DNA of 64,000 nucleotides from an uncultured Candidatus Saccharibacteria bacterium (lineage in GTDB: Bacteria > Patescibacteriota > Minisyncoccia > Phycocordibacterales > Phycocordibacteraceae), in assembly GCA_964398865.1 (NCBI GenBank), contig CAYNOO010000002.1, positions 3,588-67,587 on the forward strand, read 5' to 3'. Positions 25,191 through 33,320 of the stretch are shown piece by piece. A program made the translations under genes and the position numbers. Within the stretch, counting starts at the first letter, position 1. Every line of letters starts with the position of its first letter. Below the pieces are notes generated by a model that did not search any database, was not told the origin of the DNA, and saw only the letters and a list, made by a program, of their open reading frames with translations.

Positions 25191-25261
25191 TGGGGAGTCG
25201 TCTAATGGTAGGACAGAGGCCTTTGAAGCCTTTAATTGGGGTTCGAATCCCTGCTCCCCAG
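25191..25261 (+). tRNA. tRNA-Gln (anticodon UUG)
   Basis: A U1-A72 acceptor pair (TGGGGAG/CTCCCCA), anticodon loop CTTTGAA and T-loop GGTTCGAATCC. Followed by hairpin terminator AATCCCGATGtgtaagcCATCGGGATTtt. Confidence 0.85.
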
Positions 25262-25262
25262 C
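25244..25262 (+). repeat. direct repeat DR1, the 3' end of tRNA-Gln (CGAATCCCTGCTCCCCAGC)
   Basis: An identical 19-mer recurs at 25433-25451. Confidence 0.85.
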
Positions 25263-25432
25263 TAGAGAAAGTTGAATCCCGATGTGTAAGCATCGGGATT
25301 TTAATTTCTCTCTGTGGACAGGGATTCGAAAGACGGAGGCGCGAAGCCGCATGTCTCATGCGTCGCCGAGTCGGGGTCGAGAACACTTAGTATTTTACGA
25401 GCCTGAGAGTAAAATACTTAGTGATTCGTGAC

Positions 25433-25451
25433 CGAATCCCTGCTCCCCAGC
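25433..25451 (+). repeat. direct repeat DR2, a partial tRNA-Gln 3'-end copy (att-like)
   Basis: 19/19 identity to DR1. It sits immediately before the AT-rich islet. Confidence 0.85.
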
Positions 25452-25463
25452 AAAAAACATCAT

Positions 25464-25898
25464 ATGACAGAAATAAAAACAAAAGTGAATAAAGCGAGTG
25501 TAACGAAATTTTTGAGCACAGTTAAAGATATAGAGAAGCGCAAAGATTGCGTCGTCATTTCTAAAATGATGGAGAACGCAACTAAAGCTAAGCCGGAAAT
25601 GTGGGGGACTTCGATTGTTGGTTTTGGTCGAAGGAAGTATACGTATGCAAATGGGAAAGAGGGAGAGTGGATGATTATAGGTTTTTCTCCACGCAAACAA
25701 AACATCGCTCTCTATGGTTTAAAAATTTTCAAGATGACCACAGACGGTTTAAAAGAAAATAAAGGAGAAAACGATTTTCTTCTAAAATTAGGCAAATATA
25801 AAGAAGGAGGCGGATGCCTGTATATCAATAAGCTTTCCGATGTAGATAAAAAAGAGCTTGAAAAAATCATCAAACTCGCGGTGCATCGCAAAAAATAA
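25464..25898 (+). CDS. DUF1801 (YdhG/YdeI-like) domain protein
   Basis: Lys-rich and AT-rich gene. The KPEMWGTSIVGFG...WMIIGFSPRKQNIALYG pattern resembles the DUF1801 family. Start taken at the internal Met. Confidence 0.5.
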   Translation: MTEIKTKVNKASVTKFLSTVKDIEKRKDCVVISKMMENATKAKPEMWGTSIVGFGRRKYTYANGKEGEWMIIGFSPRKQNIALYGLKIFKMTTDGLKENKGENDFLLKLGKYKEGGGCLYINKLSDVDKKELEKIIKLAVHRKK

Positions 25899-25899
25899 T

Positions 25900-26130
25900 A
25901 TGCCCGCCAAAAAACTTGTAAAGAAAAAATACACTCATTATCACAAGGACGGCAGCATCTGGGCGAAGGGTTTTACCTCTGGAGGAAAGATGGATGGATA
26001 TTGGGAATGGTTCAGAAAAGATGGAACGAAGATGCGTTCTGGATATTTTAAGAAAAATGTTCAGACAGGTGAGTGGACCACCTACGATAAGAAAGGGGGA
26101 ATCGTCAAAGTCACGAGGATGAAAGATTGA
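25900..26130 (+). CDS. MORN-variant repeat protein (YwqK antitoxin-like)
   Basis: Repeats G.W..Y..dG (HYHKDGSIWAKGFTSGGKMDGYWEWFRKDGTKMRSGYFKKNVQTGEWTTYDKKG). AT-rich. Confidence 0.45.
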   Translation: MPAKKLVKKKYTHYHKDGSIWAKGFTSGGKMDGYWEWFRKDGTKMRSGYFKKNVQTGEWTTYDKKGGIVKVTRMKD

Positions 26131-26156
26131 TTTTAAATGGCTCATTGGGACTCATA

Positions 26157-26190
26157 ACTAATAAATGTCCGACCGGACATTTATTAGTTA
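26157..26190. terminator. perfect hairpin AACTAATAAATGTCCGaccgGACATTTATTAGTT (hairpin family B, copy 1)
   Basis: 16-bp stem downstream of the islet genes. Shares the AAATGTCCG/CGGACATTT core with 57630-57663. Confidence 0.6.
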
Positions 26191-26362
26191 TGGGGGTTTC
26201 TGAGTTTTACATGAAGAGTGAGTAGATCTAAACCGCGCACTGCAGGACTGACCCGCGGAGCATTTTTAGTGCATTTGATATACTGCAGGGATTACTCTAA
26301 CTAAGAACAGGAAGCGTCGCGCTTCAATGAACAGTTACGCGACGCGATTCTGACTGAATCGC

Positions 26363-26860
26363 ATGGTACAAAAAATCACTCCATTCTTGTGGTTCGATAA
26401 AAATGCCGAAGAGGCGATTAATTTCTACACCTCCATATTCAAGGATTCGCGCATTGTGAGTATCAAGCGTTACCCCGAGGGTCCTTTGGACGGTCCTATG
26501 AAAGGGATGGAAGGAAAAGTGCTTACTGCTGTGTTCGAACTTTTCGGACAGCAATTCATGGCACTTGATGGAGGTCCATATTTTCAGGCCTCGGGTGCTG
26601 TATCGTTTTATGTGGAGTGTCAAAATCAAGAAGAGGTTGATGAGTATTGGAACCGCCTTACCGAAGGTGGCGACCCAACTGCTCAGCAGTGCGGATGGCT
26701 CAAGGATAAATTCGGCTTCTCATGGCAGATCATCCCAGAAGCGCTGCCGCGCCTGCTTAGTGATTCGGACACGGTGAAGTCCGGACGTGTCATGGCTGCG
26801 ATGATGCAAATGAAAAAGATCGACGTGGCAACCTTAGAGCAGGCATACAATCAGAAGTGA
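26363..26860 (+). CDS. VOC-family protein (PhnB / 3-demethylubiquinone-9 3-methyltransferase-domain like)
   Basis: N-terminal ITPFLWFDKNAEEAINFYTSIFKDS is the hallmark of the PhnB-like glyoxalase-fold family. Confidence 0.7.
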   Translation: MVQKITPFLWFDKNAEEAINFYTSIFKDSRIVSIKRYPEGPLDGPMKGMEGKVLTAVFELFGQQFMALDGGPYFQASGAVSFYVECQNQEEVDEYWNRLTEGGDPTAQQCGWLKDKFGFSWQIIPEALPRLLSDSDTVKSGRVMAAMMQMKKIDVATLEQAYNQK

Positions 26861-32013: not shown

Positions 32014-33320
32014 GAGGCCGCGCTTTAATGGACGGTGCGCGGCACGATTTCGCGAAATCGTATGACCTCATTGTCGTCGGAGGAGGAGCGTCTGGTCTTA
32101 TGGCGGCAGGGCGAGCTGCGGAGCGGGGCAAGCGCGTGCTCTTGCTTGAGAAGAACCGGAAACTGGGAGAGAAGCTGAAGATATCAGGCGGAGGGCGCTG
32201 CAATATCACGAACGCAGAATTTGACGCTCGCGTACTCCTTCAGGCGTACGGGAAAGCTGAACAATTTTTATACTCTGTATTTTCGCAGTTCGGAGTGAAA
32301 GATACGTTCACTTTTTTTGAATCTCGCGGATTGCCATTGGTCGTACAAGCGAGGAAGCGCGCATTTCCAAAAACTGAAAAAGCCGAGGATGTGCTCAAGG
32401 TACTCCAGAAATACCTAATTGAAGGAAAGGTGACTGTTCTGACGGGCTCTCCTGTTACGGAGATTCACTCCGACAAAGTGAAGATCACAGGCGTTTCTTC
32501 TGGCAAAGAGAAATATGTGGCAACGGACTATCTTTTTTCAACGGGAGGGGTGTCCCACCCAGAAACAGGTTCAACTGGCGACGGTTTTGGCTGGCTCCGC
32601 AAGCTTGGTCATAGCGTGGTCAAACCTACGCCGACCATCGTCCCGCTTAAGGTGAGCGACGCCTGGAGCAAGAAACTTGCTGGAATTTCTATCGAGCATA
32701 TGAAAATAACATTCTTCGTGGAAGAGGAGGTAAAAGATGTAGCAAGTAAAAAGAAGACATTCTCTGAAACAGGAAAGATTTTATTCACGCATTTCGGTCT
32801 TTCGGGTCCTCTTATCTTAAACAGTGCACACAAGGTTGCGGACTTGCTCCACGATGGAGCTGTTACGGCTACGATAGACCTGTTTCCAGATATTGATCTC
32901 GGCGTCCTTGAGAAAAAAGTGATTGCCGTTTTTGATGAGAATAAAAACAAGACCCTGAAGAATATCCTTAAAGAATTGCTACCAGCAGGGACTGCTAAAG
33001 GTATCGTGACGCTTTTGGCTGACACGGTGGACACTCTTAAGAAAGTTCATTCCATCAGCAAAGAGGAACGTAAAGCAATCGTACGTATTTTTAAAGCGCT
33101 TCCACTCACCATCACGGGGCTGATGGGTTTTGATAGAGCGGTGATTGCGGACGGCGGCGTGGCACTTGAAGAGATCGATATGAAGGTCATGCGCTCGAAG
33201 AAAATTTCGAACCTCTACGTGACGGGGGACTTGCTACATATCAACAGACCTTCGGGCGGCTTCTCGCTCCAGCTTTGTTGGTCTTCAGGATATGTAGCGG
33301 GAAGCCACGCGGGTGGGTGA
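32010..33320 (+). CDS. HI0933/YhiN-family FAD-dependent oxidoreductase
   Basis: DLIVVGGGASGLMAAGRAAERGKRVLLLEKNRKLGEKLKISGGGRCNITN is the characteristic N-terminus of the HI0933-like flavoprotein family. Confidence 0.8.
   Translation: MRGRALMDGARHDFAKSYDLIVVGGGASGLMAAGRAAERGKRVLLLEKNRKLGEKLKISGGGRCNITNAEFDARVLLQAYGKAEQFLYSVFSQFGVKDTFTFFESRGLPLVVQARKRAFPKTEKAEDVLKVLQKYLIEGKVTVLTGSPVTEIHSDKVKITGVSSGKEKYVATDYLFSTGGVSHPETGSTGDGFGWLRKLGHSVVKPTPTIVPLKVSDAWSKKLAGISIEHMKITFFVEEEVKDVASKKKTFSETGKILFTHFGLSGPLILNSAHKVADLLHDGAVTATIDLFPDIDLGVLEKKVIAVFDENKNKTLKNILKELLPAGTAKGIVTLLADTVDTLKKVHSISKEERKAIVRIFKALPLTITGLMGFDRAVIADGGVALEEIDMKVMRSKKISNLYVTGDLLHINRPSGGFSLQLCWSSGYVAGSHAGG

Follow-up and report, generated by a model that had tools for sequence, protein, structure and literature searches.

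Islands that target transfer RNA (tRNA) genes carry attachment (att) repeats of the tRNA 3' part, accrete in tandem and leave cis-mobilizable remnants without an integrase. Attachment sites can also be folded single strands, as in the attP(+) hairpin of CTX phage, used by XerCD, and the integron attC. The Mauriceville retroplasmid of Neurospora integrates through a hybrid tRNA-plasmid complementary DNA (cDNA). Here we describe a structured element at positions 25263-25451 of a 64,000-nt stretch (the window) from an uncultured Candidatus Saccharibacteria bacterium (GenBank assembly GCA_964398865.1, contig CAYNOO010000002.1), directly behind a tRNA-Gln gene. After a linker, a 5' arm complementary to the tRNA 3' end and a 3' arm repeating that end enclose a two-hairpin core. 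We rate it slightly better than even that this is an intact, ~190-nt copy of a family of small (about 130-200 nt), non-coding, self-folding elements at the 3' ends of tRNA and transfer-messenger RNA (tmRNA) genes in Patescibacteria, and that the family inserts at, or is built onto, those ends.

Like tRNA-targeting islands, the element repeats the tRNA tail from the T-loop to the end, leaves the tRNA intact, has empty counterpart sites, stacks in tandem and is followed by variable cargo. Unlike them, it is only about 190 bp long, has no integrase and contains an extra, inverted copy of the target and a covarying two-hairpin core; a single core is used at all isotypes, with the arms re-matched to each target. 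With CTX attP(+) and attC it shares strand specificity and two inverted target copies, ~100 nt apart, that can fold into a duplex mimicking the site. The arms at 25312-25330 and 25433-25451 pair as such a folded attachment site requires, and the repeat order that such a site would leave recurs in the window and throughout the family. It differs from these sites in its target, the T-loop/acceptor segment of a tRNA and not dif or attI, and no dedicated or host recombinase was found linked to it. We know of no single-stranded replicon that carries it.

Among tRNA mimics (the tRNA-like domain of tmRNA, the bacterial Y RNA-like YrlA, viral tRNA-like structures), the likeness lies in paired ends that form an acceptor/T-arm-like helix and, in some copies, a CCA end; the element's 5' side also carries GGAUUCGA-type sequence resembling the tmRNA 5' region. 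Unlike these mimics, it has no tag reading frame, its T arm is not intact (the core lies inside), its acceptor sequence varies with the upstream tRNA, and the ARAGORN, Rfam tRNA, tmRNA and YrlA models do not detect it. Like REPIN/REP sequences and miniature inverted-repeat transposable elements (MITEs), it is small, non-coding, hairpin-forming, intergenic, placed at the 3' ends of transcription units and present in many copies across genomes. It parts from them in that its arms are copies of the target, differing from site to site, and not inverted repeats of its own; in a deeply divergent core with compensatory changes, where those families show recent, near-identical copies; in a variable duplication length; and in occurring only once in the 64-kb window. 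As with the Mauriceville retroplasmid, the insert sits at a tRNA gene 3' end, is flanked by tRNA sequence, and its tRNA segment may carry an unencoded CCA; by contrast, no reverse transcriptase is present or linked, and in some copies the repeat extends into the unprocessed 3' flank. For a described equivalent, the searchable literature yielded only general work on tRNA fragments and att sites, and group I introns located in the anticodon loops of Patescibacteria tRNAs, a separate phenomenon. The structured family appears to be undescribed.

The tRNA-Gln repeat and its fold

The tRNA-Gln gene (anticodon UUG) lies at 25191-25262 on the + strand (ARAGORN call ttg; Rfam tRNA, 61.6 bits). Its last 19 nt, CGAATCCCTGCTCCCCAGC, occur exactly at 25244-25262 and at 25433-25451 and nowhere else in the 64 kb. 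The first copy spans from T-loop C56 to one base beyond the discriminator, and in-register similarity of the two copies reaches 28 nt at 86%. This duplication, reported in a preliminary description of the locus, is confirmed: 0.01 matches are expected by chance, and two copies arose in 0 of 100 shuffles. No further copy was found in the window with up to three mismatches allowed, nor any third direct repeat; the next-best match has six mismatches, like shuffled sequence. The exact pair bounds an insert as the direct repeats of an integrated island would, and the 170-bp insert is non-coding, with no integrase inside.

Another copy of the tail lies inverted between the two repeats. It is exact on the - strand at 25319-25330 (TTCGAATCCCTG), within an imperfect arm over 25312-25330. 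On the + strand, the linker between tRNA and arm is a palindromic, terminator-like hairpin at 25264-25311 (stem 25274-25301, then a T-rich run), detected by inverted-repeat and terminator analysis, with palindrome arms at 25264-25284 and 25291-25311. Linker, tRNA tail and 5' arm together make a long imperfect palindrome. The 5' arm, CTGTGGACAGGGATTCGAA (25312-25330, +), reads as the tRNA 3' strand in reverse complement and covers its T-loop, T-stem and acceptor strand. The match is perfect at 25319-25330; farther out there are a single mismatch and a single bulge.

The first half of the core (25331-25379, +) comprises a junction AAG, a short helix GAC/GUC in which A25333 pairs with T25371, a conserved internal loop CGGAG/CGAG, the variable hairpin 1 (25339-25366, including GCGAAGC at 25341-25347) and the invariant block CGAGUCGGGGUCG (25367-25379). 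The second half (25380-25432, +) is hairpin 2, with conserved internal loops and a perfect stem of 13-15 bp (25384-25398/25409-25423), and ends in the invariant GUGAC (25428-25432). GGUCG (25375-25379) pairs with UGACC (25429-25433). The 3' arm (25433-25451, +) is the second repeat, an exact tRNA-Gln copy from C56 onward, and pairs with 25312-25330. Because the 3' arm repeats the tRNA from C56, the apparent 19-bp direct repeat consists of the tRNA tail and the closing strand of the element. The preliminary description had seen only a terminator and a hairpin in this interval; both are there, together with the inverted tail arm and the conserved core.

As RNA, 25312-25451 is predicted to form one closed structure, a long closing helix with two hairpins around a junction (minimum free energy -89.3 kcal/mol, z=-9.0). 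In a DNA fold that includes the tRNA tail, the 5' arm pairs instead with that tail across the terminator hairpin (z=-9.5). The inverted arm therefore has two alternative partners, the 3' arm in the RNA fold and the tRNA tail in the DNA fold. A covariance model built from the family cores finds exactly one copy in the window, at 25330-25435 (52 bits, E=1e-9).

Searches against Rfam 15 returned only tRNAs and sub-threshold noise, at E<=10 for the window region and at E<=1 for 16 other loci. ARAGORN finds no tmRNA in the window, and no tmRNA-clan model matches at E<=10. The core has no conserved reading frame, and its hairpin loops vary. Two candidate identities were rejected. The 5' GGAUUCGA and GCCGAG..GGGGUCG recall tmRNA or another known RNA; this identity has no ARAGORN or Rfam support at E<=10 and no tag frame. 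A guide RNA of the TnpB/IS605 or IS110 type, with a scaffold followed by a 19-nt target copy after 'GGTT', was also considered; no such gene lies nearby, no downstream protein recurs, and the sequence that would be the guide is base-paired to the 5' arm.

The family and its tRNA-Gln sites

Scanning metagenomes with the pattern CGAGNCGGGGTCGNG..GTGACCGA gave at least 120 loci (individual loci are cited by L numbers). A same-strand tRNA or tmRNA gene ends at most 350 nt upstream in 85 of 123 instances (median 102 nt), and these genes cover all 20 isotypes plus tmRNA. After GTGAC, those 85 copies repeat the 3' part of the neighbouring gene from T-loop C56. The arms match the neighbouring gene. 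The copied tail mostly stops at the tRNA end; exceptions are L211, L279, L297 and both copies of L215, which include another 10-38 nt of flank. Duplication lengths range from 19 to 57 nt. The order is tRNA, palindromic hairpin, 5' arm, AAG-N-CGGAG, hairpin 1, CGAG-N'-CGGGGUCG, hairpin 2, GUGAC and tRNA tail. Of 38 scorable copies, 22 have a 5' arm split by a hairpin of 22-27 nt, placed precisely where the complement of the acceptor meets that of the T-stem.

Covariation was measured on 76 distinct cores, with apical loops replaced by GAAA and all rows gap-free; the set is biased toward the search motif, and the 5' half of the core lies outside that motif. Paired cells make up 85.3% compared with 64.6% in shuffles, and the covariation score is 0.497 versus 0.134 (each 0/500). 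Sliding the pairing partner by 1-3 columns leaves at most 39% paired. The N/N' pair is CG in 28 cores, AU in 25, GC in 20 and UA in 3, and is never unpaired. Close relatives differ by compensatory changes in both hairpins, for example AA/UU versus CG/CG. The folded strand is the tRNA-sense strand, because G-U pairs are invariant at some positions and frequent at others. These comparisons establish that the family exists and that selection maintains its fold on the tRNA-sense strand.

At 28 informative positions, the tRNA's own acceptor or T stem has a G-U pair or mismatch. In 24 of these cases the 5' arm has the base that makes a Watson-Crick pair with the 3' strand, and in only 3 it has the tRNA's 5' base, so that an origin of the arm from a duplicated 5' half of the tRNA was rejected. 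Cores at least 85% identical stand beside different isotypes in 21 of 24 pairs, and Trp/Glu and Arg/Tyr pairs reach 95%. Core subtype is also discordant with host: the closest host, L016 (DnaX 91%), does not share the window's subtype, and the distant L043 (53%) does. In L215 and L304, two copies on one contig differ in subtype. Two or three elements stand in tandem behind one tRNA in L216, L290, L236, L229 and L224, and duplicated tail-plus-linker segments in some of these arrays indicate unequal recombination between copies. Arm complementarity, isotype-swapping cores, host-discordant subtypes, mixed contigs and tandem arrays together favour an element that spreads horizontally or between sites, its arms apparently regenerated from each target.

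A CCA that is absent from the adjacent tRNA gene follows the 3' arm in about 7 of 30 intact copies, versus about 2 expected; CCA-bearing copies are L238, L288, L299, L311, L315 and L320, and L008 and L018. Such an unencoded CCA would be either a trace of templating from mature tRNA or a product of selection for a CCA end. GCGAAGC occurs in 17 of 90 family cores versus about 1 expected, a ~17-fold enrichment in the variable hairpins; a longer motif, GAGCGAAGCGAA, recurs in apical loops. As DNA, GCGAAGC forms an exceptionally stable mini-hairpin (PMC13037366). Directly after GTGACCGA, within the copied T-loop, a small conserved hairpin, (A)AGCGTACTCGCGG, occurs in six unrelated copies (L201, L220, L227, L251, L272, L319).

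With the covariance model, core-like copies were also detected on the - strand in L072 (3375-3436, 44 bits), L045 (2716-2796, 27.5 bits) and L026 (1808-1913, 24.9 bits). Each immediately follows the stop of a gene resembling topoisomerase I (...HNPHKL*) and has a closing helix of non-tRNA sequence. The core therefore also holds a conserved non-tRNA position, which speaks for a function of the core independent of tRNA. An extra module, GUNCUCUUGUGG..., is found in L045, and also in L042 and L052.

Relatives of the window locus were collected by scanning with the DnaX protein encoded upstream in the window, giving 80 loci from Paceibacteria/Parcubacteria-group genomes; tRNA-Gln adjoins dnaX in 69. 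The window's own organism is a Patescibacterium of this group. A homologous unit lies behind tRNA-Gln in L002, L003 (two copies), L004, L006, L008, L016, L018, L043 and L060, and a partial one in L009. Each unit ends in its own genome's tRNA-Gln tail, though tails vary among genomes. L002-L004 match the window at 85-90% identity in the unit and at 73-92% in the linker hairpin; the unit thus exceeds dnaX DNA (76-79%) and a neighbouring open reading frame (ORF; 65-68%). The window alignment runs from dnaX through tRNA and unit and halts at 25451-25455, at the second repeat. No sequence past 25451 is alignable in L002-L004, L008 or L018, and L004 resumes only at window position 32061.

L017 and L021 are unoccupied, with the flank CCAGTTTGAGATAGGTT... 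directly after tRNA-Gln. That flank comes after the last tail copy in L003 and L004, and an L021-type flank after the +3277 copy in L016. Since the empty-site flank follows the last copy, the DNA between tRNA-Gln and that copy is inserted and stacked in tandem. Set against L003, L004 and L016, the two empty loci supply the insert-free site expected of an integrated island, and comparison of filled and empty sites shows that in the tRNA-Gln lineage the unit and the DNA behind it are insertions. The structured unit comes first in occupied relatives, followed by islets of 0.25-3.5 kb, of which L016 gives an example of cargo (a ParB-like nuclease and a Dam methylase). Additional tail copies border variable islets in L004 (+3767), L016 (+3277, +4393), L003 (+441), L006 (+429) and L001 (+1204). 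The native flank of the window's own site was not recovered in the window. The comparison of relatives proposed in the preliminary description thus finds synteny ending exactly at the second repeat and the site empty in L017 and L021.

A second kind of unit occurs at tRNA-Gln, a 5'-truncated tRNA copy running from GTAGGAC (D loop) to the 3' end and preceded by a conserved ~44-nt leader (..TGCGCG/TGCACA..CTCGCTCGCT..). Counted from the tRNA-Gln end, it lies at +1..+98 in L009, +1..+99 in L013, +1..+100 in L018, +1..+75 in L001 and +192..+270 in L003. A variant core interrupts its T arm in L003 and L001.

In agreement with the preliminary description, no integrase was found in the window, neither a tyrosine recombinase (tblastn with XerD, a search of limited sensitivity) nor one of the large serine type. 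Among 375 ORFs from about 70 tRNA-Gln loci, phmmer with the XerD query, likewise of limited sensitivity, found no tyrosine integrase, and no recombinase was found within 6 kb in element-bearing relatives. The window accordingly contains no large serine recombinase integrative element. An integron cassette array does not fit either, as no tyrosine recombinase was found and the only hairpin behind the small ORFs (26153-26192) has no second copy in the window. The genes that follow the element share no recurrent protein family.

Large serine recombinase genes (Resolvase, Recombinase and Zn-ribbon domains) do converge on the tRNA-Gln 3' end in more distant relatives, namely L024, L028, L059, L062, L066, L070, L079 and L080. 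These elements have no core and no repeat, and no long direct repeat was found within the available 2-9.5 kb; they are a second, independent class at the same tRNA ends. The sole serine recombinase case among the 123 instances is L268, at tRNA-Tyr, where the tRNA-like remnant seen upstream of the unit points to two independent insertion events. We rejected the idea, raised by L268, that the element is an end module of large serine recombinase elements, given 1 of 123 instances and the lack of core and repeat in those at tRNA-Gln. An origin as a phage or plasmid attP was rejected as well: a 15-mer scan of viral contigs gave chance matches only, none with the upstream motif.

Competing explanations

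We infer that the unit is, or once was, mobile and non-autonomous. On the reading we favour, that of an inserting or built-on family, entry would occur by recombination within the segment from T-loop to 3' end, leaving the tRNA intact and a displaced second copy of the target behind the element. The displaced copy could serve as a further landing site, which would explain why the strain-specific, low-GC (guanine plus cytosine) stretch with DUF1801 and MORN starts right behind it. Single-strand exchange between a tRNA gene and a folded single-stranded circle would be expected to leave just this succession of parts: tail, linker, inverted tail, core, second tail and flank. Such an exchange would hypothetically require the two arms of the circle to mimic the target duplex, in the style of CTX-phage attP and integron attC. 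Folding at the DNA level would be in keeping with the enrichment of GCGAAGC.

Several observations weigh against this account. No simple recombination model accounts for both arms being re-made when a core changes tRNA. The topoisomerase-linked copies in three genomes and the compensatory changes at the same locus suit a resident functional RNA equally well. The window has a single copy, and no right-hand repeat for the AT-rich islet. No recombinase, reverse transcriptase or transposase recurs beside the element, and the recombinase of L268 looks like an independent user of the site, since the serine recombinase elements at tRNA-Gln lack core and repeat. On IMG/VR viral contigs, the first motif pattern gave two chance-looking matches, with no nearby tRNA and no tRNA-like tail, and the second gave none. 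To our knowledge, no free or extrachromosomal form of the element exists.

The main rival is a resident non-coding RNA gene that mimics tRNA, which we judge possible though unlikely. Its closing helix would be the acceptor/T-arm minihelix of the neighbour, the core would replace the T-loop interior, and the ~25-nt hairpin of some copies would take the place of the D arm and the anticodon arm. Such an RNA would arise by read-through or from a promoter of its own, be processed like tRNA and act as a decoy, a regulator or a processing signal, with the repeat being mimicry. That hairpin, near-constant at 22-27 nt and exactly between the acceptor and T-stem complements, is well placed for such a role. 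An RNA of this kind would also suit the strong covariation, the conserved internal loops and the G-U pairs on the tRNA-sense strand, the same-locus compensatory changes in related genomes, conservation above that of the flanking genes, the 3' arms with a CCA missing from the adjacent tRNA gene, and the core-like copies at a conserved non-tRNA site after the topoisomerase gene. It would not be expected behind a hairpin resembling an intrinsic terminator, with no evident promoter. A repeat reaching 10-38 nt beyond the tRNA end in several copies points to duplication at the DNA level and would be useless for mimicry. The 5' arm is a perfect complement and not a G-U-tolerant stem, arms are decayed in many copies, cores swap isotypes, subtype does not track host phylogeny, the unit is absent at the empty sites of L017 and L021, and the ARAGORN and Rfam tRNA and tmRNA models do not recognize it.

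The preliminary description read the locus as an attL/attR scar, in which deletions would have worn a tyrosine- or serine-recombinase island in tRNA-Gln down to 170 bp of meaningless sequence between the two att sites, with a decayed islet beyond; we regard this as improbable. In its favour, a directly repeated tRNA 3' end is the textbook mark of att sites, relatives have repeat-flanked islets with cargo (ParB-like nuclease and Dam methylase in L016), and serine recombinases abut tRNA-Gln in other genomes. The integration hotspot itself stands, as empty and filled relatives attest. Random decay would not yield one architecture at over 85 loci and 20 isotypes, nor perfect N/N' covariation or 85-90% conservation, and the AT-rich islet lies outside the repeat pair, with no third repeat. 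The second 19-mer is a strand of the closing helix of an intact, covarying fold, close to the outcome (a conserved regulatory hairpin) that the description itself had set against an att scar, and the word remnant does not fit. Least probable, to the point that we give it very little credence, is that the structure regulates the DUF1801 mRNA in cis from its 5' leader, as a riboswitch or attenuator, and resembles a tRNA tail by coincidence. The DUF1801 ATG lies 12 nt past the element with no promoter-like site between, and the 5' arm can pair with either the tRNA tail or the 3' arm; against this, unrelated genes in either orientation follow the element in relatives and metagenomes, DUF1801 homologues in other genomes lack it, and no Rfam riboswitch matches. 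Overall, the earlier interpretation is partly supported and its observation confirmed, while both a decayed scar and a DUF1801 leader are poorly supported.

More tentatively, and with less than even confidence, we propose that the family is a new class of tRNA-coupled element, protein-less and self-folding, with arms templated from the 3' strand of the neighbouring tRNA or tmRNA gene, that after settling would serve both as an acceptor/T-arm mimic and as a landing pad used repeatedly by strain-specific genes. It might spread in one of two ways, as a folded single strand that mimics the duplex of the tRNA gene or by way of an RNA or cDNA intermediate copying the tail of the mature tRNA. Patescibacterial genomes are tiny and contain few recognizable mobile elements, and gene exchange among these bacteria is poorly understood; here the element marks the exact border between conserved and strain-specific DNA. 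If mobile, it would target the universal T-loop without a linked recombinase and build variable regions beside tRNAs. If an RNA, it would be a new family of tRNA mimics whose identity tracks the neighbour. A single covariance model suffices to look for the family, and in annotation such partial tRNA copies will be misread as integration scars or tRNA pseudogenes.

DNA beyond the second repeat

GC content is 0.37-0.41 over about 25400-26300 compared with about 0.47-0.55 on either side, which bears out the drop beyond the second repeat given in the preliminary description. The first gene of this strain-specific, AT-rich stretch encodes a DUF1801 protein of 144 amino acids (25464-25898, +; GC 0.36; Pfam E=2e-7, above the cut-off) and starts 12 nt past the second repeat. 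It is followed by a Lys-rich ORF of 76 amino acids with a weak MORN_2 match (25900-26130, +; Pfam E=2.3e-4, 21.5 bits versus a cut-off of 29.6). The earlier assignment of two small genes to DUF1801 and MORN-like proteins thus holds for the first and is weak for the second. Downstream of these ORFs lies a perfect 19-bp palindrome (26153-26192), probably a bidirectional terminator. It had been taken for a member of a hairpin family closing the islet; the palindrome is real, and it has no second copy in the window, where its central 26-mer is also unique. A PhnB-like ORF (3-dmu-9_3-mt, Pfam) follows at 26363-26860.

The preliminary description also suggested one or two tandem integrated elements. 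Stacked inserts in relatives agree with tandem integration; the AT-rich stretch, which has no right-hand repeat, is at most a putative bounded integrated element. Exact-protein look-ups for the window's DnaX, DUF1801 and PhnB-like proteins found none on record.

The DUF1801 gene is conserved to an unusual degree across Paceibacteria. Among the 120 clusters listed of 5,938, homologues are 79-100% identical at the amino acid level, and most are exactly 144 amino acids long, which identifies the ATG at 25464 as the start. A GTG-initiated ORF (25428-25898) reads through the second repeat into DUF1801 (MTESLLPSKKHH-MTEIK...); because most of the listed homologues have 144 amino acids, this extension is not real. 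It resembles an artefactual frame at the distal repeat of L004 (MIESLFPSQ...), and gene callers may report such frames.

DNA homology around DUF1801 is confined to the gene, at about 84% from 10-16 nt before the ATG to the stop, in comparisons whose loci include L323, L324, L325, L327 and L329. The gene is low in GC (0.36-0.39) in all five genomes measured, that of the window and four others. DUF1801 always stands among small accessory genes in varying order, and in 4 of 6 independent contexts a same-strand tRNA-Gln lies 0.2-2.3 kb upstream. These contexts support the view that the DNA after 25451 is exchangeable and linked to tRNA-Gln. Several DUF1801 copies are preceded by ...YCCCAG..AAAANATCATNTATG, which resembles a decayed tRNA-Gln tail.

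Across the whole window, the Pfam scan of 43 ORFs recorded DprA (DNA_processg_A), which processes single-stranded DNA in natural transformation, together with a C-5 methylase and RE_HaeIII, a restriction-modification pair of the HaeIII type.

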